From positions 3,840,001 through 3,904,000 of the forward strand of contig OY969695.1 in the NCBI GenBank assembly GCA_963701965.1: a stretch of 64,000 bases of DNA, given 5' to 3'. The DNA comes from an uncultured Gemmatimonadales bacterium. GTDB lineage: Bacteria > Gemmatimonadota > Gemmatimonadetes > Gemmatimonadales > Gemmatimonadaceae. Below are positions 9,602 through 21,840 of the stretch, piece after piece. Both the position numbers and the translations under genes were made by a program. The notes under the pieces were generated by a model that saw only the letters and a list, made by a program, of their open reading frames with translations, did no database searches and was not told the origin of the DNA. The stretch's first letter is position 1, and each line of letters begins with the position of its first letter.

Positions 9602-10876
9602 ATGACTGAAACCAAAACGGCCGCGGCCGAACTGGACGTGACGGATACCCGCACCGGGACCGCGTACGCCCTCAAGATCACCGACAGCGCCATTCGGGCG
9701 ACGGACCTCAAAGGCGGCCTCGTCAGCTACGACCCGGCGTTCCTCAACACCGCGGCGTGCCGCAGCGCGATCACCTATATCGACGGCGAGAAGGGCATTC
9801 TCCGCTATCGGGGCTATCCGATCGAGCAACTCGCCGAAAAGGCGAGCTTTCTGGAAGTCGCCTGGCTCCTGAGAAACGGAGAGCTGCCGACCCAGGCCGA
9901 ATACAATACGTTCGTGCACGACGTCACCTATCACACGATGGTGCACGAGAATCTCCGCACGTTCCTGCAGGGATTCCGCTACGACGCGCACCCCATGTCG
10001 ATGCTGTGCAGCGCCGTGGCCGCGCTGTCGTCGTTCTATCCGGAATCGAAGGAGATCTTCGATCCGCAGCAGCGCTACATGTCGATGATCCGTTTGATCG
10101 CCAAGGTTCCGACGATCGCGGCCTTCATCTATCGGCACATGAAAGGGCTGCCCTACGTCTATCCGGACAACGACCTCTCGTACAGCGAGAACTTCCTGTC
10201 GATGGTCGCCCGCATGAGCGAGTCCAAGTATCAGTCGAAGCCGGAGTTCACGCGGGCCATCGAGATCCTGTTCATCCTGCACGCGGACCACGAGCAGAAC
10301 TGCTCCACGAACGCCGTGCGCGCCGTCGGCTCGTCGCACGTCGATCCGTTCTCGGCCCTGTCCGCGGGTATCGCGGCGTTGTATGGCCCGCTGCATGGCG
10401 GCGCCAATGAAGCCGTGCTGCGGATGATCGAGGAGATCGGCGACATCAAGAACGTCCCGGCGTTCATCGAGAACGTGAAGAAAGGCTCGGGACGGCTCAT
10501 GGGCTTTGGCCATCGCGTCTACAAGAGCTACGACCCGCGGGCCAAGATCGTGAAGAAGCTCGCCGACGAAGTGCTGGCGTCGGTCGGCGTCGACAAGGAT
10601 ATGGCCATCGCGATGGAGCTGGAGCGCATCGCGCTCCAGGACGACTACTTCGTCTCCCGCAAGCTGTATCCCAACGTCGATTTCTACACGGGACTGATCT
10701 ATCGGGCGATGAAGTTCCCGACGTCGTTCTTCACCGTGTTGTTCGCGATCGCCCGCACGACGGGCTGGCTGGCGCAGTGGGAAGAGGGCTTGCTGGACAA
10801 GGAGCAGAAGATCGCGCGACCCAAGCAGATCTACACGGGCTACGCTGAGCGTCAGTATGCGAGGAAGGTCAAGTAA
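9602..10876 (+). CDS. gltA: Citrate synthase
   Basis: ITYIDGEKGILRYRGY, ADHEQNCST, GPLHGGANE, LMGFGHRVYK, YPNVDFY. Confidence 0.97.
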   Translation: MTETKTAAAELDVTDTRTGTAYALKITDSAIRATDLKGGLVSYDPAFLNTAACRSAITYIDGEKGILRYRGYPIEQLAEKASFLEVAWLLRNGELPTQAEYNTFVHDVTYHTMVHENLRTFLQGFRYDAHPMSMLCSAVAALSSFYPESKEIFDPQQRYMSMIRLIAKVPTIAAFIYRHMKGLPYVYPDNDLSYSENFLSMVARMSESKYQSKPEFTRAIEILFILHADHEQNCSTNAVRAVGSSHVDPFSALSAGIAALYGPLHGGANEAVLRMIEEIGDIKNVPAFIENVKKGSGRLMGFGHRVYKSYDPRAKIVKKLADEVLASVGVDKDMAIAMELERIALQDDYFVSRKLYPNVDFYTGLIYRAMKFPTSFFTVLFAIARTTGWLAQWEEGLLDKEQKIARPKQIYTGYAERQYARKVK

Positions 10877-11819
10877 CGGTCCGTGACTCTCCCGTAAATC
10901 CCAAGCGTTCCTGGACGACGTACAAGGGCCGGCGTTTGACTTCACCGTAAATCCGGCCCACGTACTCGCCAATCATGCCCACGGAGATGAGCTGGATGCC
11001 GCCGACGAACAGGATCGCCACGAAGGTGGCGGCCCAGCCGGCGACCCAGTGTCGCGTCAGCAGCCGGACGCCGATCGCGTAGGCGATCCCGCCCAGGGCG
11101 ATCACCGACGAGGCGAATCCCAGCAGCGTCGCCAGCCGGAGTGGACGAATCGAAAACGACGTGATGCCGTCGATCGCGAATCGCATCATCTTCCACAGCG
11201 GGTACTTGCTCTCGCCGGCCTCGCGCGGCGCCCGGGCATAGGTCACGGCGACCTGGCGAAACCCGACCCAGCTCACCATGCCGCGGACGAACCGGTCGCG
11301 CTCGGGCATCGCCCGCAACGCCTCGACGACCCGGCGATCCATCAGGCGAAAATCGCCGGTATCGATGGGGATTTCCGTGTCGGTGAGCTGATTCAGTAAC
11401 CGATAGAACACGGCGGCGGTCCAGCGCTTGAACGCCGTCTCCCCGTCGCGCCACTGACGCACCCCGTAGGCGACGTGATATCCCTCGCGCCATTGGGCCA
11501 GCATCTCGGTCATGACCTCCGGCGGATCCTGCAGATCCGCATCGATCACGACGACGACGTCGCCCAGCGCCTCCTCGACGCCGGCGGTCACCGCCATCTG
11601 GTGGCCGAAATTGCGCGAGAACCGGAGCACGCGGACCCGCGGATCGTCGCGCTGGATCTCCCGCAAGACCTCGAGCGTGCGGTCGCGGCTGCCATCATCG
11701 ACGTAGATGATCTCGCTTTCCAACCCCTCGAGTCCGTCAACGACGGCGCGCAGTCGTTGGTGCGTTCTCGGCAGTACGTCTTGTTCGTTGAACGCGGGGA
11801 CCACGATCGAGAGCAGCAT
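10869..11819 (-). CDS. GT2 polyprenol-phosphate glycosyltransferase (GtrB/DPM1-like)
   Basis: SIVVPAFNE, VDDGSRD, SRNFGHQ, IDADLQDPP, DTGDFRLMDRRVV, two C-terminal TM helices. Start taken at ATG 11819. Confidence 0.9.
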   Translation of the reverse strand: MLLSIVVPAFNEQDVLPRTHQRLRAVVDGLEGLESEIIYVDDGSRDRTLEVLREIQRDDPRVRVLRFSRNFGHQMAVTAGVEEALGDVVVVIDADLQDPPEVMTEMLAQWREGYHVAYGVRQWRDGETAFKRWTAAVFYRLLNQLTDTEIPIDTGDFRLMDRRVVEALRAMPERDRFVRGMVSWVGFRQVAVTYARAPREAGESKYPLWKMMRFAIDGITSFSIRPLRLATLLGFASSVIALGGIAYAIGVRLLTRHWVAGWAATFVAILFVGGIQLISVGMIGEYVGRIYGEVKRRPLYVVQERLGFTGESRTVT

Positions 11820-11896
11820 TGTCACTCCAGTGTATCGCCAATGTGGCAATGGCTCAACAGTGGCAATGTCTCGCCGCCGGTACGATCGTTCATCGA

Positions 11897-13465
11897 ATGT
11901 CATCGCCCGTCCCGTCGATGTCATTGGCGGCAGCGCCGAGGCGTCTGCTTGGCTTTGCCGCGCTGCTCGCGCTCCTGCTATTGCTACCCACGCTGAGCTA
12001 TGGCCTCGGCTTCGACCACGGGTTCATGCAATACATTGGGCGCGGCATTCTGCGTGGCGAATGGCCCTACGCCAACGCGTTCGACACATTGTTTCCCGCG
12101 ATCTATCTGCTGCACATGACGGTGATCGCGATCGGCGGCCAGTCCGTGCTCGCGCTCCGCGTCGCCGATCTCCTCATCCAGATCGCCAACGCGCTGCTGC
12201 TGTTCACGCTCGCGCGCCGCATTGGCGGCGCCCGCGCCGGTTTCGTCGCCGTGGCGATCTACACGATCGCCTACACCAACGGTACCTACTACCATACGGC
12301 CGAGCGCGACAGTTTTCTCACGCCGTTGCTGCTGGCCGCGGTGTGGGGAGTGTGGCGCTTTCTCGAGACGCCGGCGCGCCGCGGGCCCCTGATCTGGGGC
12401 GCCGCCTGTGCCGGACTGGCTTGCCTCTTTCGCCCGACGTACGCGCTGGTGGTGGCCCTGGCCGCGCTCGCGCTCCTGCGGCGACAGCCCCGGAAAAGCG
12501 ACGCGGTCACTTTCGCGGGGGTCGCCGCGGTCCCGATTCTCGCTTTTCTCATCGTGTATCTGGTTTCGGGTCATCGCCAAGCCCTCGCCGATCTCTTCAC
12601 CTACCTGACCACGGTCTACGTCCTGGTCGAACGCAAGACAAAGACCGTCGTGCTCATGGCACTCTGGCGAAACGTGCCCCTCGTGGCGTGGATCGGCACC
12701 GCGCTCGCCGTGGTCGGGGCGTGGAGCGGCGCCTGGCGGACGCGCCGGCGCGAGCTGTGGACGATCGTGGGCCTCTTCCTCGCCTGCGTACTGGTGCGGC
12801 TGTGGGAGTCCAAGGGCTACCGGTACCAGTATTGGCCGTGTGTCGCGTCGCTCAGCATCGTCGCCGCGCTGGGATGGGACTGGGCCGTCACGGTGCCGCC
12901 GCGGGTCGCCGCGGCCGCCGTGCTCGTCGGGGTCCTCGCCGCGGAAATGGGGCGCACCGGTCTCGCGCGCTACGCCACGATGTGGCCCGACGTCGCTCCG
13001 ACCGGCTCCGCGGCGTTCACCCACATGGTCTCCGACAGCCGCGACCAAGCGGCGCTGGCCGAGTATTTGACCGCGCACACCGGACCGGATGACCGTATTC
13101 AGATGTGGGGCCCGGAGACGATTGCGCTCTTCGCCACTGGACGCACCTCCGCGACGCGATTCATCGACTCGTTCATGTTCGTGTGTCAAGATCCCAAGGA
13201 CTCGCACCACATGCTCCTGTTCACCGACTGTGGTCCGGGGTGGAACAAACCCGTGCAAGTGGCGTTCCGCCGCGAGCTCATGGAGCAGTTGAACGCGCGC
13301 CCGCCGCTCTACATCGGCGCCCATTACGCCGATGGCACCATGGCCATTGACACGACGTACAGCATCGCGCCGGACTTGCCCGAATTGCGCGCGCTGATCG
13401 ACCAGCGCTACGTGCGCGAGGCCACGTTCGGCCCCTGGTCGGCATTCCGCCGCACGGACCGCTAG
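11897..13465 (+). CDS. Multi-TM GT-C fold glycosyltransferase (ArnT/PMT-like)
   Basis: First loop GFDHGFMQYIGRGILRGEWPY...FDTLFPAIY, many TM helices, periplasmic C-terminus. Start approximate. Confidence 0.7.
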   Translation: MSSPVPSMSLAAAPRRLLGFAALLALLLLLPTLSYGLGFDHGFMQYIGRGILRGEWPYANAFDTLFPAIYLLHMTVIAIGGQSVLALRVADLLIQIANALLLFTLARRIGGARAGFVAVAIYTIAYTNGTYYHTAERDSFLTPLLLAAVWGVWRFLETPARRGPLIWGAACAGLACLFRPTYALVVALAALALLRRQPRKSDAVTFAGVAAVPILAFLIVYLVSGHRQALADLFTYLTTVYVLVERKTKTVVLMALWRNVPLVAWIGTALAVVGAWSGAWRTRRRELWTIVGLFLACVLVRLWESKGYRYQYWPCVASLSIVAALGWDWAVTVPPRVAAAAVLVGVLAAEMGRTGLARYATMWPDVAPTGSAAFTHMVSDSRDQAALAEYLTAHTGPDDRIQMWGPETIALFATGRTSATRFIDSFMFVCQDPKDSHHMLLFTDCGPGWNKPVQVAFRRELMEQLNARPPLYIGAHYADGTMAIDTTYSIAPDLPELRALIDQRYVREATFGPWSAFRRTDR

Positions 13466-15099
13466 TGCGCCGCCTCTCGCTCGGCGTCATCCTGTCTTTG
13501 CTGGCGCTGGGCGCCGCCGTCGACGCCATCGATCTGTGGCGGCCGATCGATGGCTCGTCGCGGGAATTGTTTCGCGAATGCGACATGGGCGGGATCGCGC
13601 GCAACTATGCCCGCGAAGGCATGCACTTGCTCTATCCGCGGATCGACTGGCGGGGTGACGGGCCAGGATACGTGGAGATGGAGTTCCCGATCTACCCGTA
13701 CGCGATCGCGATCGGGTACCGCGCGCTGGGGATTCACGCGCAAATCGGCCGGGTGATCACGTACGCCGTGTCGCTGGTGACCCTCGGGCTCTTCATCGCG
13801 CTCGCGACGTACCTGCTGCCGCCCGTGGGCGCGGTCACGGCCACGCTGTTCTTCATCATCGATCCGTTGACCGTGCGGTTGGCGAACGCGATCCAGCCCG
13901 AGCCGCTCATGCTGCTCGGCTACATCGGTGCCGTCTACACGTACCTCCGATGGCTCGACGAGGATACCTGGTGGTGGTACGGGTGGGCGCTGTTCCTGAC
14001 GTCGCTCGCGGTGCTGGCCAAAGCGCCCGCGGCCCACGTGGGACTCGTGTTTCTGGCGCTGACGGTCTGGCGACGGGGATGGCGCGCCTTCCTGCGCCCA
14101 CGCCTCTGGATCTTGGGAATCGCGGCGCTGGTTCCGCCCGCCCTCTGGTACTGGCACGCCCACCAGTTCTATCTCACCTACGGCAATTCGCTGGGCGCAT
14201 CGAACCACCAACACTTCACGGGGCTCAAAGTGCTCACCGAGTCCCGCTACGTCACCGGCATCGCGCGGATCGAGATGTCGCTGGTGTGGATGTCGTCGGG
14301 TTTGCTGGCCGTGGCGATGGCGTTGGCGCTCGGTCTCCGGTCACGCGCTTTCACGTGTGGACTCCTGTGGTACGCCGCGATCCTGATCTACTACCTGCTG
14401 ATCGCGGGCACGAGCGCCGAGACGTGGGCATCGTACTATCACATCGTGTCCGTGCCGCCCGCCGCGCTCCTCATCGGCGCCGCGGCCGCGGCCGTGGTCG
14501 AGCGCCTGCGGAGTCGCCAAGCGCCGCGCCTCGCCGTCCCCCGCCTGGCCTGGGCGATGGTCGTGCTCCTCTGCGTCGCGGCCGTCCAGCAGGTGCTTCG
14601 TCCCGGCACGCCAATCGCGCCGTTGGGAGTCGCCGCGCTGGTTGGAGCGCTGGTTCTGATTGCGCGGCGCGCCGCGGGCGCTGCCGCGCTGGCCGCCCTG
14701 GCCTGCCTGACGATGCTGGCGCCGGTGTCCGCGTTGCGCCAAACAGTGAGCGAGATCCATCCCCACCGATTCGAGCCGCAATACGAGACCGCGAAGGCAT
14801 TTGCGCCGCTCATTCCGCCGGGCGTCCTCATCGCCGTGAGTGGAGAGGCCTGCGTGAGCAAAGACGAGTCGGCGTACAACAGCCCGTGGTATCTGTACTG
14901 GACGGACCACAAGGGCTTCACGCCCTGCGTGCAGGATCACACGATCCCCGTCGTCCGCGCGCTCGAGGCGCGCGGCGCCCGCTATTTCATCGCGGACCGT
15001 GCCGCGCTCGCCGCCCAGCCGGGATTCGAGGCCGAGATGCGGCGGGCATTCACGGTGGAATCGGAGACGAGCGAGGCGGTGCTGTTCAAGTTGGACTGA
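13465..15099 (+). CDS. ArnT/GT39-like membrane glycosyltransferase
   Basis: FRECDMGGIARNY...YPRIDWRG...VEMEFPIYPY, IQPEPLML, many TM helices. Confidence 0.75.
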   Translation: MRRLSLGVILSLLALGAAVDAIDLWRPIDGSSRELFRECDMGGIARNYAREGMHLLYPRIDWRGDGPGYVEMEFPIYPYAIAIGYRALGIHAQIGRVITYAVSLVTLGLFIALATYLLPPVGAVTATLFFIIDPLTVRLANAIQPEPLMLLGYIGAVYTYLRWLDEDTWWWYGWALFLTSLAVLAKAPAAHVGLVFLALTVWRRGWRAFLRPRLWILGIAALVPPALWYWHAHQFYLTYGNSLGASNHQHFTGLKVLTESRYVTGIARIEMSLVWMSSGLLAVAMALALGLRSRAFTCGLLWYAAILIYYLLIAGTSAETWASYYHIVSVPPAALLIGAAAAAVVERLRSRQAPRLAVPRLAWAMVVLLCVAAVQQVLRPGTPIAPLGVAALVGALVLIARRAAGAAALAALACLTMLAPVSALRQTVSEIHPHRFEPQYETAKAFAPLIPPGVLIAVSGEACVSKDESAYNSPWYLYWTDHKGFTPCVQDHTIPVVRALEARGARYFIADRAALAAQPGFEAEMRRAFTVESETSEAVLFKLD

Positions 15100-15742
15100 C
15101 CGCGTACGTCGCGCAGACGCCCCGCACGGGGCAGCGAGGGCAGTGGCGGACGCGCGCCGTGCAGACGAGGGCGCCCAGCTCCATGAGCGCTTGATTGTGC
15201 GTGTAGGCGACGCGGCCGCTTCGCGGCAGCGTCGCTGTCGCGAGCCCCCAGGCGGCCCGGCGGCCGGCGGCACTCCGCGGGTCCAACCGGGGCCGAAAGA
15301 CACGCAGCAGGACGCGGGCGACGTTGGTGTCCACGAGGGGTGCCGGGCGCTCGTAGGCGAACAATGCCACGGCGCCGGCCGTGTAGGCCCCGATCCCCGG
15401 CAATGCTGCCAGCGCCCGCGGATCGTCCGGCAGGGGGCCGTCGATCTGGCGGGCCAGCTTGTGGAGATTGCGGGCGCGGGCATAGTACCCGAGACCCTGC
15501 CACGCTTCGGCGACCGCCCGCGGCGTGGCCTTGGCGACGCTGGCGAGCGTCGGATAGCGCGTCAGAAAAACCGGGTAGTAGAGCAGGACGCGGGCGACCT
15601 GCGTCTGCTGGAGCATCAGTTCGGAGACGAGCACCTGATAGGGATCGCGGGTCCGACGCCACGGCAAGTCCCGCCCGACCCGCCGGTACCATGCCCGCAG
15701 TCGCCGTCCAAAGACGCGGGCGTGTGTCGCGTCGAATTTCAT
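15086..15742 (-). CDS. mutY: A/G-specific adenine glycosylase-like protein (short MutY, HhH-GPD with 4Fe-4S loop)
   Basis: RDLPWR, VSELMLQQTQV, WQGLGYYARARNLH, LPGIGAYTA, NQALMELGA, C-x6-C-x2-C-x5-C. Confidence 0.82.
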   Translation of the reverse strand: MKFDATHARVFGRRLRAWYRRVGRDLPWRRTRDPYQVLVSELMLQQTQVARVLLYYPVFLTRYPTLASVAKATPRAVAEAWQGLGYYARARNLHKLARQIDGPLPDDPRALAALPGIGAYTAGAVALFAYERPAPLVDTNVARVLLRVFRPRLDPRSAAGRRAAWGLATATLPRSGRVAYTHNQALMELGALVCTARVRHCPRCPVRGVCATYAVSPT

Positions 15743-15786
15743 AGTCGTCTCTCGAATAGCTATATACTTATCGCGGCCAAAACCTA

Positions 15787-17184
15787 ATGCTCTTCAACAG
15801 TTTCGTCTTCCTCGTCCTGTTCCTGCCGGTCACCTATACGGTGTTCTGGCTGCTCCGGAACGCTGCGCAGCGCTACGTCTGGCTGACGGTCACGGGGTAC
15901 GTGTTCTACGGGTATTGGAACCCGAAGTTCTGCCTCCTGATGGCGTTCTCCACGATCGTCAGCTACGCGGCCGGGCGCGGGTTCCTCGAGTGGCCGGACG
16001 ACCCGCGCCGTCGCAAGCTCTGTTTGGTGGTCCCGATCACGGTCGACCTCCTGCTGTTGGGATTCTTCAAGTACGCCAACTTCGCCCTCCGGTCGATCGG
16101 CGACCTCTCGGCCTTCGCGGGGCACCCGATCCCGGTGGCGCACTTCGACATCGTACTCCCCATCGGGATCTCGTTCTACACGTTCCACACGATCAGCTAC
16201 ATCGTCGACAGCTACCGGGGCGTGATCCGGCCGACGCGGAATTTCTTCGAGTTCGCCGCGTATGTCTCGCTGTTCTCCCAGTTGATCGCCGGGCCGATCG
16301 TCCGCTTCCGCCAGATCGAGACTGATCTCGAGGCGCTCGGACAGGCCGACCGCCACCGCTGGCTGGCCCGCGGCGTCCGGTTTTTCATCATCGGGTTGGT
16401 CCAGAAGGTGTTGGTCGCCGACACCCTGGCGGCGATCGTCGATCCCGCGTTGGCGCACTACGCCCAGCTGTCGACCGCCGACGCCTGGGTCGCCGTCCTC
16501 GGCTACACGTTCCAGCTCTACTTCGACTTCGATGGCTACAGCACGATGGCGGTGGGCCTCGGGTACCTCTTTGGCCTCCGGATCCCGCAGAACTTCAATT
16601 CACCGTACAAGTCCCTGGACCCGTCCGATTTCTGGCAACGCTGGCACATCTCGCTGTCGACGTGCCTCAGGGACTACGTCTACATCCCGTTCGGTGGCAA
16701 TCGCCAGGGCACGCTCAAGACGTATCGCAACCTGATGCTCACGATGCTGATCGGCGGCTTGTGGCACGGCGCGAACTGGACCTTCGTGGTCTGGGGCGCC
16801 TACCACGGCATTCTGCTGGGTGCCCATCGCGTGACCGCGCGGCGTTGGGATGCCGCGCCGGCGCTCGCGCGCCGGACCAGCATGTTCTTCTTCGTGGTCA
16901 TCGGCTGGGTGTTCTTCCGGTCCACGGACTTTCACATGGCCGCCGTGCTGCTCGGTCGGATGTTCGCCTACACGCCCGGATCGTCCGGCGTCGTGACGCC
17001 GGGCGTCGTGGCGTTGCTGCTGGGCGCCGCCCTCTGGAGCATGGTGGGGCCCAACGCGTTCGATATCGACGCGCGGTGGGTGCCGCGGCGCCGGCACGCG
17101 TTCGCGCTGGCCGCGGCGTTCGGCGCGTGCCTGGCGATCATCGCCGGCACGGGGTCGTCGCCCTTTCTGTATTTCCAGTTCTAG
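15787..17184 (+). CDS. MBOAT family O-acyltransferase (AlgI/DltB-like)
   Basis: LPIGISFYTF, QLIAGPIVR, QLYFDFDGYS, FWQRWHISLS, GLWHGA. Confidence 0.92.
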   Translation: MLFNSFVFLVLFLPVTYTVFWLLRNAAQRYVWLTVTGYVFYGYWNPKFCLLMAFSTIVSYAAGRGFLEWPDDPRRRKLCLVVPITVDLLLLGFFKYANFALRSIGDLSAFAGHPIPVAHFDIVLPIGISFYTFHTISYIVDSYRGVIRPTRNFFEFAAYVSLFSQLIAGPIVRFRQIETDLEALGQADRHRWLARGVRFFIIGLVQKVLVADTLAAIVDPALAHYAQLSTADAWVAVLGYTFQLYFDFDGYSTMAVGLGYLFGLRIPQNFNSPYKSLDPSDFWQRWHISLSTCLRDYVYIPFGGNRQGTLKTYRNLMLTMLIGGLWHGANWTFVVWGAYHGILLGAHRVTARRWDAAPALARRTSMFFFVVIGWVFFRSTDFHMAAVLLGRMFAYTPGSSGVVTPGVVALLLGAALWSMVGPNAFDIDARWVPRRRHAFALAAAFGACLAIIAGTGSSPFLYFQF

Positions 17185-17231: not shown

Positions 17232-17252
17232 GAGCTCCGCTGTGCGGAGCTC
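17232..17252. terminator. Inverted repeat between convergent genes
   Basis: GAGCTCCGC-TGT-GCGGAGCTC, a perfect 9-bp stem. No clear U-tract. Confidence 0.5.
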
Positions 17253-17926
17253 TAAGCGCCATTTCTCGCGACGGTCACGTACTGCGCGCCGAGTGGACAC
17301 CAGCACAGGGCCGGCTCGAGCGGGCGCAACCACTCCAGCAGCCGCGGGAAGAACACGATGTAGTCGCGCCGGACCACGCGGAGTCCGGCGTCGGTGAGCC
17401 ACTGGCTGGTGTCGCGCGTCGGCACCAGCACCACGCCATCATCGAACGGACACCGGGATACGGCCCAACGCGTCAACGGGTTGATGGGATTGTGCTCGAA
17501 TACGACCAGAGTGCCGCCCGAGGCCAAGCGCGCGCTGACATCGCGAATGGCGCCCGCCCGCTCGGTCGGGTCAATGTGGTGCAGCACGTTGGCCAGCACC
17601 GCGACGTCGTAATTGCGACCCAGGTCCTGGGGATCGCTGGTGAAGGTGCCCCGGCCGGCGACCCCGGGATCGATGCGGCGCACGCTGTCCGGCGACGGAT
17701 CGAATCCGTCGATGCGCATACCGGAGAGGCGGGAGGCGATCTGCCGCGCCAGCGCCCCGACGCCGCAACCGTAGTCCAACAGGGCGCCGCCGGGCGGCGG
17801 CGCCACGACGCGCGCCAGATACGCGGCCTTGTACGCGGCGAAATAGTCGGAGGTCTCTCCCGTGATCCGGACGTTCTCGTCGACCAGTTTCTGATAGTCT
17901 CTCGCGAACGCATCGAATTCGGACAA
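17252..17926 (-). CDS. Class I SAM-dependent methyltransferase
   Basis: LLDYGCGVG motif I, NVLHH, FEHNPINP. TTG start at 17926 preceded by GGAGG. Confidence 0.85.
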   Translation of the reverse strand: MSEFDAFARDYQKLVDENVRITGETSDYFAAYKAAYLARVVAPPPGGALLDYGCGVGALARQIASRLSGMRIDGFDPSPDSVRRIDPGVAGRGTFTSDPQDLGRNYDVAVLANVLHHIDPTERAGAIRDVSARLASGGTLVVFEHNPINPLTRWAVSRCPFDDGVVLVPTRDTSQWLTDAGLRVVRRDYIVFFPRLLEWLRPLEPALCWCPLGAQYVTVARNGA

Positions 17927-17943
17927 GCCACCTCCCGCGCAGA

Positions 17944-19116
17944 TCAGTACTTCGGCACCTCCGGGTCGACGTCGTCGCTCCACCGCGTGATGCCGCCGGT
18001 GAGATTCCACACGTTGCGAAATCCGGCGGCGACGAGCGCCTGGGCGGCTTTGGCACTCCGGCCGCCGACCTTGCACTGCACGACGATCTCGCGCGAGGGG
18101 TCGAGGTGCGACACGGCCCCCGGGAACGTGCTCAGTGGCAAGAGTCGCGCCCCCTCGATCCGCGCGATGTCCCACTCGTAGGACTCGCGCACATCGATCA
18201 GATCGAAATCGTCGCCCCGTGCCAACTTGTCAGCCAAGGCACGCGGCGTGATCTCTCGCACGCCGACGGGTTCCGGTGCTGGCGCGCCCGCACCGCAGAA
18301 TGCGTCGTAGTCGATCAATTCCCGAATCTCGTGTGTCCCACAAGCAGGACAGGTGGGGTCGCGCCGGATCTTCACTGTGCGGAACCCGGCCCTCAGGGCG
18401 TCGATCAGGAGCAACCGGCCAATGAGCGGTTCGCCGATCCCGAGAATGAGTTTAATCGTTTCGTTCGCCTGAATCGTGCCCACCAGACCTGGCAATACCC
18501 CGAGTACGCCGCCCTCGGCGCAACTCGGCACCAAGCCTGGCGGAGGGGGCTCACGGAACAAACACCGATAACAGGGGCCGTCCAATGTGGCAAGCACCAA
18601 TGCTTGGCCCTCGAACCGGAAAATACTGCCGTAGACGTTCGGCTTCCCCGTGAGGACGCACGCATCATTCACCAAATACCGGGTGGCGAAATTATCCGTG
18701 CCATCGACGACAATGTCGAAGTTTCTGAAAATGTCGAGTGCGTTGGCGGATGTGAGTTTGGTCTCGAATGTCTCGACCGCCACGTGGGGATTGATCTCGC
18801 GCACGCGGTCGGCCGCTGACGCCAGCTTCGACCGCCCTACGTCGGATGTGCCGTGGAGGATCTGACGCTGCAGGTTCGTGACATCGACGACGTCGAAATC
18901 GACAATGCCCAAATGGCCGATCCCCGCGGCGCCGAGGTACAACGCGAGCGGCGAGCCGAGGCCGCCGGCGCCGACGAGCAGCACGCGCGCCGCTTTGAGC
19001 CGCCGCTGGCCGTCGACTCCCACATCGGGGAGAATCAAATGCCGGCTGTAGCGGAGCACCTCGTCACGGGTCAGCTCCGGCAGCTCGCGATCGACCAATG
19101 TCATCGTCACTGTCAT
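17944..19116 (-). CDS. moeB: MoeZ/MoeB-type adenylyltransferase fused to a rhodanese domain
   Basis: RYSRH, GAGGLGS, TNLQRQ, DGTDNF, CYRC, PSCAEGGVLG, CPAC, rhodanese loop CKVGGRS. Confidence 0.93.
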   Translation of the reverse strand: MTVTMTLVDRELPELTRDEVLRYSRHLILPDVGVDGQRRLKAARVLLVGAGGLGSPLALYLGAAGIGHLGIVDFDVVDVTNLQRQILHGTSDVGRSKLASAADRVREINPHVAVETFETKLTSANALDIFRNFDIVVDGTDNFATRYLVNDACVLTGKPNVYGSIFRFEGQALVLATLDGPCYRCLFREPPPPGLVPSCAEGGVLGVLPGLVGTIQANETIKLILGIGEPLIGRLLLIDALRAGFRTVKIRRDPTCPACGTHEIRELIDYDAFCGAGAPAPEPVGVREITPRALADKLARGDDFDLIDVRESYEWDIARIEGARLLPLSTFPGAVSHLDPSREIVVQCKVGGRSAKAAQALVAAGFRNVWNLTGGITRWSDDVDPEVPKY

Positions 19117-19388
19117 CCTCCCGCGACTGCGGGGACGATCGTCACCTCGTCTCCATCGCGGATCGCGGCCCCAAAGCCGCCCGCGAAGCGGACGTCTTCA
19201 TCATTCAGATAGTACGTGACGAAAGGATAGGGGTTCCCCGCGTCATCGGTCAGGCGGGGCTTGAGCGCCGGAAAGCGCCGCGACACGTCGGCGACCGCGT
19301 CGCCGAGCGTGGGGCCGCTCGCTTCCAGGGCGCGCTGGCCGTCGGCCAGCTTGGACAACACATTGGGCAGATGGATCGTGATCGACAT
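19113..19388 (-). CDS. Ubiquitin-like sulfur carrier protein (MoaD/ThiS/CysO family)
   Basis: 91 aa MSITIHLP...YLNDEDVRF...DGDEVTIVPAVAGG ending in free Gly-Gly. ATGA overlap with moeZ. Confidence 0.92.
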   Translation of the reverse strand: MSITIHLPNVLSKLADGQRALEASGPTLGDAVADVSRRFPALKPRLTDDAGNPYPFVTYYLNDEDVRFAGGFGAAIRDGDEVTIVPAVAGG

Positions 19389-19404
19389 GGGATATTCCTT
19401 ACGA

Positions 19405-20679
19405 TTAAGATAATTCGACGAGTGCCGAAACTTCGCGCAGTTTCGGCGCGATGACCGGCGCGTCGGGCAGGGCGCCCGCGAGCGCTTCCACGGTCTTGAG
19501 TCCGTTGCCGGTGATGCAGAGGACGACTTCGTCGTCATTGGCGAAGTGTCCGGTCTGGGCCAGCTGAAGGGCCGCCGCGACGGTGGCGCCGCCCGCCGTC
19601 TCGGTGAAGATGCCGGTCGTCTCGGCCAAGAGACGAATGCCCCGCACAATGGCCGCATCGTCGACGGCCGCGCCCCACCCACCGGTGTCGCGCAGCGCCC
19701 GCACGGCGGAGGAGCCGTCGGCGGGATTGCCGATGGCAATCGATCGGGCGATCGTCCGCGGCACTTCGGGCACCAGGACATCGCCTCCGGACTCCAAAAG
19801 GCGCACGATCGGCGCGCACCCGCTCGCCTGCGCGCCGTAGAGGCGGGGCGCCGCGCCGCTGACCAGCCCGGCCTCCGAGAACTCGCGGAATCCCTTGCGC
19901 AGTTTCGTGACCAGCGAGCCACCGGCCATGGGCGCGACGACGGCCGTCGGGGTGCGCCAGCCGAGTTGCTCGATGATCTCGAACGCCATGGTCTTCGACC
20001 CCTCGCCGTAGTATCCGCGCAGATTGACGTTGACGACGCCCCAACCGAAGCGGTCGGCGACCTGCGCGCACAACCGGTTGACATCGTCGTAGGTGCCGCG
20101 AACGCGGACCAGCTTTGGTCCGTAGACCAGTGTGCCGACGATCTTGCCGAGCTCGAGATCGTCGGGCACGAAGATCCACGCCGTGAGCCCGGCGCGCGCC
20201 GCGTGCGCGGCGACGGCGTTGGCCAGATTGCCGGTCGATGCGCACCCAATGGTGTCGAGCCCGAACGCCGCCGCGGCGTTGATGGCCGAGGCGACCACGC
20301 GATCCTTGAACGAGAGCGTCGGATGCGAGACCGCATCGTTCTTGACCCATAGGCGCTCGACACCGAGCGCCCGCGCCAGCGCGGGGGCCTCCACGAGCGG
20401 GGTGAATCCGGAGTCGAGCGATCGGGTGGGCTGGCCGGTGAACGGCAGCCACTCCCGATAGCGCCACAGCGAGGGTTCGCGCGCTCCGATGATCGCCCGG
20501 TCGGGAATGATGCGCGGTCCGTCGAGATCGTACGCGGGCTCGAGCGGACCCAGGCAGTGTTCGCAGATCGCAATGGGTGCCGGATCGAACACGGCGCGGC
20601 AGTGCACGCAGATCTGGGGGAGCGCCTTCAGCGAGGCCGCGGCGGCCTCGGGAAAGGGGAATGTGACTGATGCGGTCAT
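19405..20679 (-). CDS. Threonine-synthase-like fold-type II PLP enzyme (probably sulfur-incorporating)
   Basis: N-terminal CxxC/CxxC, PLP Lys motif PTLSFKDR, ASTGNLA, EGSKTMAFEI, ETAGG, ITGNGLKT. Confidence 0.88.
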   Translation of the reverse strand: MTASVTFPFPEAAAASLKALPQICVHCRAVFDPAPIAICEHCLGPLEPAYDLDGPRIIPDRAIIGAREPSLWRYREWLPFTGQPTRSLDSGFTPLVEAPALARALGVERLWVKNDAVSHPTLSFKDRVVASAINAAAAFGLDTIGCASTGNLANAVAAHAARAGLTAWIFVPDDLELGKIVGTLVYGPKLVRVRGTYDDVNRLCAQVADRFGWGVVNVNLRGYYGEGSKTMAFEIIEQLGWRTPTAVVAPMAGGSLVTKLRKGFREFSEAGLVSGAAPRLYGAQASGCAPIVRLLESGGDVLVPEVPRTIARSIAIGNPADGSSAVRALRDTGGWGAAVDDAAIVRGIRLLAETTGIFTETAGGATVAAALQLAQTGHFANDDEVVLCITGNGLKTVEALAGALPDAPVIAPKLREVSALVELS

Positions 20680-20745
20680 ACTGGAGTTCTCCCGCCCCGC
20701 TGACCGAAGCTTTTCGGCGCCGGGAAAAGAAAACGTCCCCGGCGC

Positions 20746-20775
20746 AAAAAAGGCCGCAGGACGCGGGGGCTTTTT
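20746..20775 (-). terminator. Terminator-like hairpin with U6 tract directly after the aptamer
   Basis: Minus strand reads AAAAAGCCC-CCGC-GUCCU-GCGG-CC-UUUUUU. The stem is short. Confidence 0.5.
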
Positions 20776-20821
20776 AGCGACTTGTTTAACGTGGCTGCAA
20801 TACGCCGTAACTCACCACGTG
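20770..20821 (-). ncRNA. SAM-II (SAM_alpha-like) riboswitch aptamer
   Basis: Minus strand reads ACGUGGUGAGUUACGGCGUAUUGCAGCCACGUUAAACAAGUCGCUAAAAAG. P1 is ACGUGG/CCACGU, the pseudoknot pairs UUGC with GCUAA, and the hallmark UUGCAGCCACGUUAAACAAGUCGCUAAA is present. Lies 5' of a sulfur operon. Confidence 0.85.
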
Positions 20822-20838
20822 CGGACAATTGTGCAGCT

Positions 20839-20868
20839 AGTGTAATCACACCGGAGCACCGCGCGCAA
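20839..20868 (-). promoter_or_regulatory. Candidate sigma70 promoter for the riboswitch-led operon
   Basis: TTGCGC-N18-TACACT on the minus strand, just upstream of the aptamer. Confidence 0.35.
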
Positions 20869-20886
20869 GGGGTTAGCTTTCTCGAT

Positions 20887-21840
20887 ATGCCGCGCATCGA
20901 TGCATCGATCGGACGGACGCCCATGGTGCGACTCGAGCGTGTGGTCGAGCCGGGCATGGGCGATGTGTGGGTCAAGCTCGAGGGCATGAACCCGGGCGGC
21001 TCGATCAAGGACCGCACAGCGCTGGGCATGGTGCGCGACGCCGAAGCGCGCGGCCTGCTGGAGCCGGGCGGCCGCATCGTCGAGCCGACGTCCGGCAACA
21101 CCGGCATTGGGCTGGCGCAGGTGGCATCGGCGCGCGGCTATGCGCTCACGCTCTGTATCCCATCCTCCATGAGCGAGGAGCGGCTGCGCACGCTGCAGGC
21201 CTACGGTGCCGAGATCGTCCTCACCGACCCCGAGCGACGCATGCTCGCGGCCATCGAAGAGGCGGAGAAGATCCGGGACATCACGGGCGCGTGGATGCCG
21301 AACCAGTTCGCGAATCCGGCGAATCCGCGCATCCACTATGAGACCACGGGCCCCGAGATCTGGGACCAAATGGACACCGCCGTCAATGCGTTCGTCTACG
21401 GATCGGGGACCGGGGGCACGATCAGCGGGGTCGGGCGCTTTCTCAAGGAGCGCCGCCCCGGTGCCATCGTCATCGCGGTGGAGCCGGCGCGCTCGCCGGT
21501 GCTGTCGGGCGGCCAGCGGGGCAAGCACCAATTCCAGGGGATGGGGCCGGGATTCGTGCCGCCCAACTTCGACCGTCGGGTGGTGGATCGCGTCATCCGC
21601 GTGTGGGAGGAGGACGCCTTTCCGCTGGCCCGCCGCCTGGCCCGCGAAGAGGGGGTGTTCGTCGGGATGTCCAGCGGCGCCATCATCTGGGCCGCCATTC
21701 AGGTGGCGCGCGAGCTCGGTCCGCGCGCCCGCGTCGCCTGCATCGCGCCGGACTCGGGCGCGCGCTACTTGACGACGGCGCTCTTCGAGCCGGTCACGAC
21801 ACTTTCCGAGTCTTTTTGCGTAGGAAGTCCATCAGAATGA
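20887..21840 (+). CDS. cysK: Cysteine synthase family PLP enzyme
   Basis: IGRTPMV, NPGGSIKDR, EPTSGNTG, QFANPAN, GTGGT, GMSSGA, PDSGARYL. Confidence 0.85.
   Translation: MPRIDASIGRTPMVRLERVVEPGMGDVWVKLEGMNPGGSIKDRTALGMVRDAEARGLLEPGGRIVEPTSGNTGIGLAQVASARGYALTLCIPSSMSEERLRTLQAYGAEIVLTDPERRMLAAIEEAEKIRDITGAWMPNQFANPANPRIHYETTGPEIWDQMDTAVNAFVYGSGTGGTISGVGRFLKERRPGAIVIAVEPARSPVLSGGQRGKHQFQGMGPGFVPPNFDRRVVDRVIRVWEEDAFPLARRLAREEGVFVGMSSGAIIWAAIQVARELGPRARVACIAPDSGARYLTTALFEPVTTLSESFCVGSPSE

Follow-up and report, generated by a model that had tools for sequence, protein, structure and literature searches.

A SAM-II-led metM-metO-moeZ operon in an uncultured Gemmatimonadales bacterium: probable synthesis of homocysteine with protein-thiocarboxylate sulfur

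The stretch of DNA considered here, 64 kb of the contig of an uncultured Gemmatimonadales bacterium (the window; positions 3,840,001 to 3,904,000 of OY969695.1), contains an operon headed by an S-adenosylmethionine (SAM) riboswitch of class SAM-II, with genes for a threonine synthase-like pyridoxal phosphate (PLP) enzyme, a small sulfur carrier, and a ThiF-rhodanese protein, which we designate metM, metO, and moeZ. From sequence comparison, it is very probable that this operon makes homocysteine from O-phosphohomoserine with sulfur delivered as a protein thiocarboxylate, as in Streptomyces, and the PLP enzyme is predicted to be a homocysteine synthase dependent on the thiocarboxylate of MetO. 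The first-pass annotation of this DNA had proposed the same condensation of O-phosphohomoserine with the carrier thiocarboxylate, and the proposal is supported by the placement of the enzyme in a phylogenetic tree, by its motifs, by two riboswitch classes, by hom and thrB neighbors in relatives, and by a separate thrB-hom-thrC cluster in the genome.

The MetM/MetO route of Streptomyces albulus is reportedly the work of Hasebe et al. 2024. In the text available, the GapMind 2026 paper (bioRxiv 10.1101/2024.10.14.618325) describes an S. albulus thiocarboxylate pathway from O-phosphohomoserine to homocysteine, names MetO, Mec (for MetO maturation), MoeZ, and MetM as its parts, and states that MetM is frequently misannotated as threonine synthase. 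A SAM riboswitch upstream of S. albulus metM is given in the accessible portion of PMC12172450, which cites GenBank BHXC01000007 for S. albulus, and MetM is named together with MetO in that of bioRxiv 10.64898/2026.09.15.751699; the Streptomyces pair that the first-pass annotation had named is therefore real. The pathway is thus already published, and what differs here is the SAM-II class of the riboswitch, the operonic moeZ, and that no Mec was found. The features of the locus are as follows.

20753..20828, minus strand: SAM-II (SAM_alpha, RF00521) riboswitch aptamer, Rfam 45.9 bits against a gathering score of 36
20754..20766, minus strand: short hairpin and U-run directly 3' of the aptamer core, candidate expression-platform terminator
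19405..20679, minus strand: metM-type PLP enzyme, 424 amino acids, PALP; 264.9 against a cutoff of 167 for TIGR00260 (thrC)
19113..19388, minus strand: metO-type sulfur carrier, 91 amino acids, ThiS/MoaD family by profile match, C-terminus AVAGG
17944..19116, minus strand: moeZ, 390 amino acids, ThiF adenylation domain and rhodanese by domain matches
17252..17926, minus strand: class I methyltransferase by domain match, 224 amino acids, TTG start
20887..21840, plus strand: cysK-type cysteine synthase, divergent neighbor, TIGR01139 416 against a cutoff of 351

All of the elements reported in the first-pass annotation are present, with the SAM riboswitch upstream and the cysteine synthase gene divergent from the operon, and the junctions between the four operon genes are, in order, a 16-bp gap, a 4-bp overlap (ATGA), and a 17-bp gap. 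The aptamer, the sole Rfam match within the window, ends 73 nt ahead of the first ATG, that of the enzyme gene. The hairpin and U-run that follow its core could possibly be the terminator of the expression platform, being one of 3 terminator-like sites against 2.4 in shuffled sequences, with a fold z-score of -1.25. A promoter scan found no site ahead of the aptamer. On the divergent strand, cysK is outside riboswitch control. A literature search, scant on subscription papers, found no paper on SAM-II in the Gemmatimonadota.

The AlphaFold model of the window enzyme (pLDDT 88.5) has the threonine-synthase fold, and by PDB and fold comparison it most closely matches threonine synthases (fold-type II; PDB 1uim, 6cgq/6nmx, and 2zsj; TM-score about 0.9 over the target). 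With ThrC it shares the PLP lysine motif SFKDR (here K125) and the predicted substrate O-phosphohomoserine. It differs from ThrC, to which it is about 35% identical, in having an extra N-terminal Cys4 knuckle (CxxC/CxxC), NVNLRxYY in place of N-SVNPxR, and AGGSL in place of GNAGN, as well as in the SAM riboswitch and the carrier neighbor at its locus. The motif NVNLRxYYxEGSKT is found in 268 of 268 long homologs, and the ThrC motif N-SVNPxRxEG in none of the 268. In an alignment to Thermus thermophilus ThrC, S155, N157, and R160 correspond to N219, R221, and Y224 of the window enzyme; we take R160 to help with water addition and specificity in ThrC, although a literature search gave no confirmation of this.

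Actinobacterial homologs for comparison were gathered from 81 sampled genomes, 34 of which match at E<=1e-80, a tally that includes three unpublished genomes. In a tree of 53 rows (a quick IQ-TREE run with branch support from the Shimodaira-Hasegawa approximate likelihood ratio test, SH-aLRT, only, and without bootstrap), the window enzyme falls within a 39-row clade (SH-aLRT 99, stem 0.99) with Streptomyces-named proteins and a Nonomuraea protein (L108; here and below, C1 denotes the genome contig, G000 the source genome, other G numbers the sampled genomes, and L numbers related loci). Outside this clade lie the ThrC proteins linked to hom/thrB, both that of the source genome and those of G329 and G357, two genomes of Streptomyces type. 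The Streptomyces rows are proxies picked by gene context rather than S. albulus MetM itself; the window enzyme is 47-49% identical to these proteins, and the figure for the ThrC of its own genome is about 36%. Proteins of two of the actinobacterial loci fall in clusters with Streptomyces-named members; when homologs of the Nonomuraea protein were searched for, none of 120 matches was named Streptomyces. Both the Streptomyces-type loci and L108 have a SAM-I riboswitch upstream and a Gly-Gly carrier gene downstream, which is the published metM/metO layout. The tree, of the kind that the first-pass annotation had called for, groups the window enzyme with metM/metO-type proxies and apart from ThrC; the enzyme passes the thrC cutoff and carries the motif of the MetM clade.

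The window locus resembles Streptomyces MetM/MetO in having a MoaD/ThiS carrier immediately behind a ThrC-homologous enzyme, a SAM riboswitch upstream, a MoeZ, and common clade and motifs. It differs in its riboswitch class (SAM-II here, SAM-I there), in its phylum, in a carrier that ends in GG where two Streptomyces-named carriers end in GGC, in the lack of any Mec found in the genome, and in having moeZ inside the operon, none having been seen in the flanking DNA retrieved for 34 actinobacterial loci.

To gauge conservation, we considered a sample of 300 Gemmatimonadota genomes, each at least 90% complete, and 78 related loci (18 from a closest set and 60 fetched), 77 of which contained the carrier; at least one pair of these loci, L014 and L045, is the same contig. 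The 16 closest related loci (66-87% identity) carry Gemmatimonadota in their titles in 15 cases and a deltaproteobacterium in the remaining one. A close carrier ortholog, scored above 100 bits, is present in 58 of the 300 genomes, or about a fifth. The enzyme gene adjoins the carrier gene in 74 of 77 loci, the three misses being cut by contig ends, so the arrangement is not chance; the carrier stays beside the enzyme even where moeZ is elsewhere. Other genes near the carrier in the 77 loci, in families verified on examples, are moeZ or a rhodanese match (47), an aminotransferase (21), panB (16), thrB (14), hom (12), and cysK (5). Using Infernal, we found that 56 of 60 relatives have SAM-II on the same strand and no more than 4.7 kb upstream, above the cutoff in 47, with the four misses at contig ends. 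All 60 relatives have SAM-II matches, usually two or three, although Rfam labels the family alphaproteobacterial. In the actinobacterial loci, SAM-I lies upstream of clade members in 14 of 20, and SAM-I is also upstream at L108, L020, and L021, and it leads the clade in a Gemmataceae locus, while no riboswitch precedes the gene at five loci of distant paralogs. The case for making methionine from O-phosphohomoserine rests most strongly on this pairing of two unrelated SAM-sensing RNAs with the same two genes, and on the presence of hom and thrB in the operon.

The source genome, a single 5.1-Mb contig, has a canonical thrB-hom-thrC cluster at C1:3606287-3609392 (hom above its cutoff, thrB 163.6 against 168), so that a separate thrC is indeed present. 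It has no MetA and no MetY or MetZ above cutoff, and two MetX-like matches were rejected, as their 149.5 and 92 bits compare with MetX cutoffs of 331-500 and they score as PRK07581/PRK06489 hydrolases. A cystathionine gamma-synthase/lyase-like gene sits at its cutoff (514 against 513), and MetC and a CBS-like gene are present, as is metH (1065 against 1011). The only other SAM-II in the genome (C1:3799445-3799519) leads metH and a homocysteine methyltransferase/MTHFR fusion gene (C1:3794028-3799270). Within the window's family, MetX (E<=1e-60) is found in 2 of 22 carrier-positive genomes and 24 of 49 others. No CysE was detected above cutoff, although the genome has CysK, CysM, and further genes resembling cysteine synthases; with the CBS-like and cystathionine lyase-like genes at hand, cysteine may be made from homocysteine by reverse transsulfuration. 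A third ThrC-like paralog in this genome (G000 C1:4351798-4352832; L002) is solitary, has altered motifs, and belongs to the PRK08197 family (458 against a cutoff of 303).

Several observations pull the other way. The window enzyme exceeds the thrC equivalog cutoff of TIGR00260, though Streptomyces P0258 does likewise (267), for which reason we do not regard that model as discriminating. The Streptomyces sequences compared are context-chosen proxies of 47-49% identity, S. albulus MetM not being among them, and support for the clade comes from a quick tree with SH-aLRT only. The source genome is only 95% complete, and it retains the cystathionine gamma-synthase/lyase-like gene and MetC, so another route is possible. 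Avoidance of MetX is weak across the phylum (10 of 58 carrier-positive genomes against 70 of 242 others, p about 0.1), and in the phylum and family counts alike kin are not independent and the unpublished genomes G053, G153, and G178 are counted. Finally, a Microcystis homolog 51.6% identical to MetM is described in the accessible text of PMC12172450 as having threonine synthase and deaminase activity and as not fully MetM-like in cells.

The window carrier, which is 38-41% identical to the Streptomyces MoaD/ThiS proteins P0259 and P0265 (both ending in GGC), already ends in Gly-Gly without extension and therefore needs no maturation; carriers at 74 of 77 related loci end in GG. Carriers with C-terminal extensions and no JAMM gene seen nearby occur at L013:8299-8619 (14 amino acids) and L094 (CES), and metM is frameshifted at L017:6001-7207; these are possibly assembly errors. 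The window MoeZ is the sole full ThiF-domain protein, or full E1, found in the genome, which also has a MoaD at C1:4992835 beside a moaE-like gene, a ThiS at C1:3910144 beside a thiG-like gene (neighbors recognized by eye), and one further carrier. As the only such protein, MoeZ likely serves MoaD and ThiS too. That a moeB label would mislead, as the first-pass annotation put it, is therefore true only in part. A rhodanese-type sulfurtransferase encoded elsewhere in the genome is 67% identical to one in a related operon, and we infer that it could supply sulfur to MoeZ.

In the route that we propose, MoeZ would adenylate the Gly-Gly end of the carrier and its rhodanese domain would provide persulfide sulfur, giving MetO thiocarboxylate. 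MetM would hold O-phosphohomoserine, from Hom and ThrB, as the PLP aldimine at K125 and eliminate phosphate, and the thiocarboxylate would then add at C-gamma, replacing the addition of water at C-beta in ThrC. Thioester hydrolysis independent of Mec would give homocysteine and MetO carboxylate, MetH would methylate the homocysteine, and SAM would switch the operon off.

In the CysM/CysO/Mec route to cysteine and the Wolinella HcyS/HcyF/HcyD/MetY route to methionine, as here, a PLP enzyme receives its sulfur from a Gly-Gly thiocarboxylate made by an E1, but the PLP enzymes are of the CysK/M or MetY families, the substrates are others, and both routes need a JAMM peptidase. No JAMM gene is present within the window, as the first-pass annotation had observed, and in the genome as a whole the only Prok-JAB match, a RadC-like gene under the cutoff, was rejected as Mec; searches with three JAMM queries (E<0.001) and a motif scan were empty. 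A strong JAMM (65 bits or more) is present in 27 of 60 carrier-positive genomes and absent in 33, and it is found in none of the 22 carrier-positive genomes of the window's family. Thirty-one of the 60 lack a strong JAMM and encode a full moeZ in the met locus, 25 have a JAMM and no ThiF protein at that locus, two are exceptions, and two are truncated, a split that is partly phylogenetic. At 10 of 10 fetched JAMM loci, the JAMM gene accompanies a cysM-type gene and another carrier gene, so Mec travels with a cysteine locus and not with metM-metO; relatives have their cysM-mec-carrier::moeZ locus apart from metM-metO, and the metM-metO locus of relatives with a cysM-mec-carrier locus has no moeZ. 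Nine of the 10 JAMM loci also contain moeZ, as a carrier-MoeZ fusion in the five whose genes are called in full, and there the carrier could be cut loose from the fusion only with the help of the JAMM. These loci (L098-L107, for example L099:3047-5828) mostly have the fusion, of 475-484 amino acids with an internal AGG. At L096, a JAMM gene adjoins the carrier, and the carrier ends in GG-R. With 33 of 60 carrier-bearing genomes having no strong JAMM, product release probably needs no Mec, and we infer that homocysteine is freed by thioester hydrolysis.

Another possibility for this step alone is that the thioester undergoes an S-to-N shift to a MetO-homocysteine amide, cleaved by a non-JAMM peptidase encoded elsewhere. 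The JAMM peptidases needed for the CysO-cysteine and Wolinella HcyS-homocysteine adducts lend it some weight, as does the listing of Mec for the Streptomyces pathway by GapMind (bioRxiv 10.1101/2024.10.14.618325). In its available text, however, GapMind assigns Mec to MetO maturation, which fits the GGC ends of the two Streptomyces-named carriers, while the carriers here overwhelmingly end in GG; moreover, no peptidase-like gene recurs among the neighbors of the 33 JAMM-negative loci, in a cluster list judged by eye. We therefore consider the shift rather unlikely. A literature search on JAMM and thioester release, scant on subscription papers, gave nothing relevant.

The enzyme might instead be an O-phosphohomoserine sulfhydrylase acting on free sulfide in vivo, with the carrier and MoeZ serving mainly molybdenum cofactor (Moco) and thiamine synthesis. 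Na2S was used to mimic MetM activity, according to the accessible portion of PMC12172450, and the genome, with its MoaD-moaE and ThiS-thiG pairs, has no E1 other than MoeZ. This would leave the near-constant adjacency of carrier and enzyme, held even with moeZ elsewhere, without explanation, and MoaD and ThiS have their own separate genes, so we think it very improbable.

Still less probable is an ordinary second threonine synthase that happens to lie next to Moco genes. The TIGR00260 score, the best PDB and fold matches, the frequent thrB and hom neighbors, and the threonine synthase activity of the Microcystis homolog in PMC12172450 (as far as its accessible text goes) are all as expected for such an enzyme. 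The window enzyme nonetheless lacks the N-S-V-N-P-x-R motif, with S155, N157, and R160 replaced, and is not grouped with hom/thrB-linked ThrC; its clade is led by two unrelated SAM riboswitch classes, and the canonical thrB-hom-thrC cluster is elsewhere in the genome. A carrier-dependent cysteine synthase like CysM/CysO, on O-phosphoserine, or a cysteate synthase could be imagined from the lack of CysE above cutoff, the adjacent cysK, and cysH/sir near the carrier locus in some relatives, but it is scarcely credible: cysteate synthase is ruled out by score (TIGR03844 65 against 325), the cysKM profile gives 39 against 344 with no linked JAMM at the locus, relatives with the cysteine carrier route encode it at the separate cysM-mec-carrier(-moeZ) locus, and the co-located thrB and hom point to phosphohomoserine.

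Two genes beside the metM-metO-moeZ operon that the first-pass annotation had drawn into its account do not belong to its core. The methyltransferase, given there as an operon member, has a homolog in 0 of 78 related loci and was rejected as such. In the closest relative, L004 (87%), moeZ ends 13 bp from a convergent MBOAT gene with no gene between, and DNA similarity to the window stops at the moeZ stop codon and resumes at MBOAT; L005 has a different gene in the methyltransferase slot. Homologs of the methyltransferase (METHYLTRANSFERASE) occur in 20 of 150 genomes of the family, and of 13 homolog loci fetched, 11 adjoin a GT2 glycosyltransferase gene and none has a met gene. A GT2/PMT/MBOAT region likewise lies just downstream of the operon in the window. 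Most likely the methyltransferase acts on cell-surface glycans and its gene was inserted behind moeZ; it is likely a recent and unrelated passenger, although it is possibly co-transcribed with moeZ. The cysK gene, listed there as the divergent partner, was rejected as a core member, being near the carrier in only 5 of 77 loci.

The adjoining region, at 10869-17184, encodes a GT2 protein, two PMT/ArnT-like membrane glycosyltransferases (one without a Pfam match at 1e-8), a mutY-like gene, and an MBOAT acyltransferase, and is a probable surface-glycan modification region. On the other side, the 3' end of cysK overlaps a convergent VWA gene by 47 bp (21794-21840); in L005 an acyltransferase-like gene lies between cysK and the VWA gene, which suggests a deletion in the window. 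A panB-like gene, whose product is ketopantoate hydroxymethyltransferase (L010:5117-5995; TIGR00222 259 against a cutoff of 208), occurs within the metM operon headed by SAM-II, or next to it, at the 16 loci counted above, often with the aminotransferase; the L011 copy lies on the other strand.

If these assignments are right, a branch of the Gemmatimonadota may run a minimal, Mec-free thiocarboxylate pathway to methionine in which MetM itself hydrolyzes the carrier-homocysteine thioester, and, with the sole E1 MoeZ repressed by SAM here, SAM would gate molybdopterin and thiazole synthesis as well; we put this forward tentatively, as a little less than an even chance. The metM and metO assignments correct a common misannotation as thrC, moaD, and moeB, and they fill the methionine gap of soil Gemmatimonadota without MetA and MetX. 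With a carrier that needs no processing and no Mec found, the three-gene metM-metO-moeZ set would be a clean system in which to study how homocysteine is released from its carrier.

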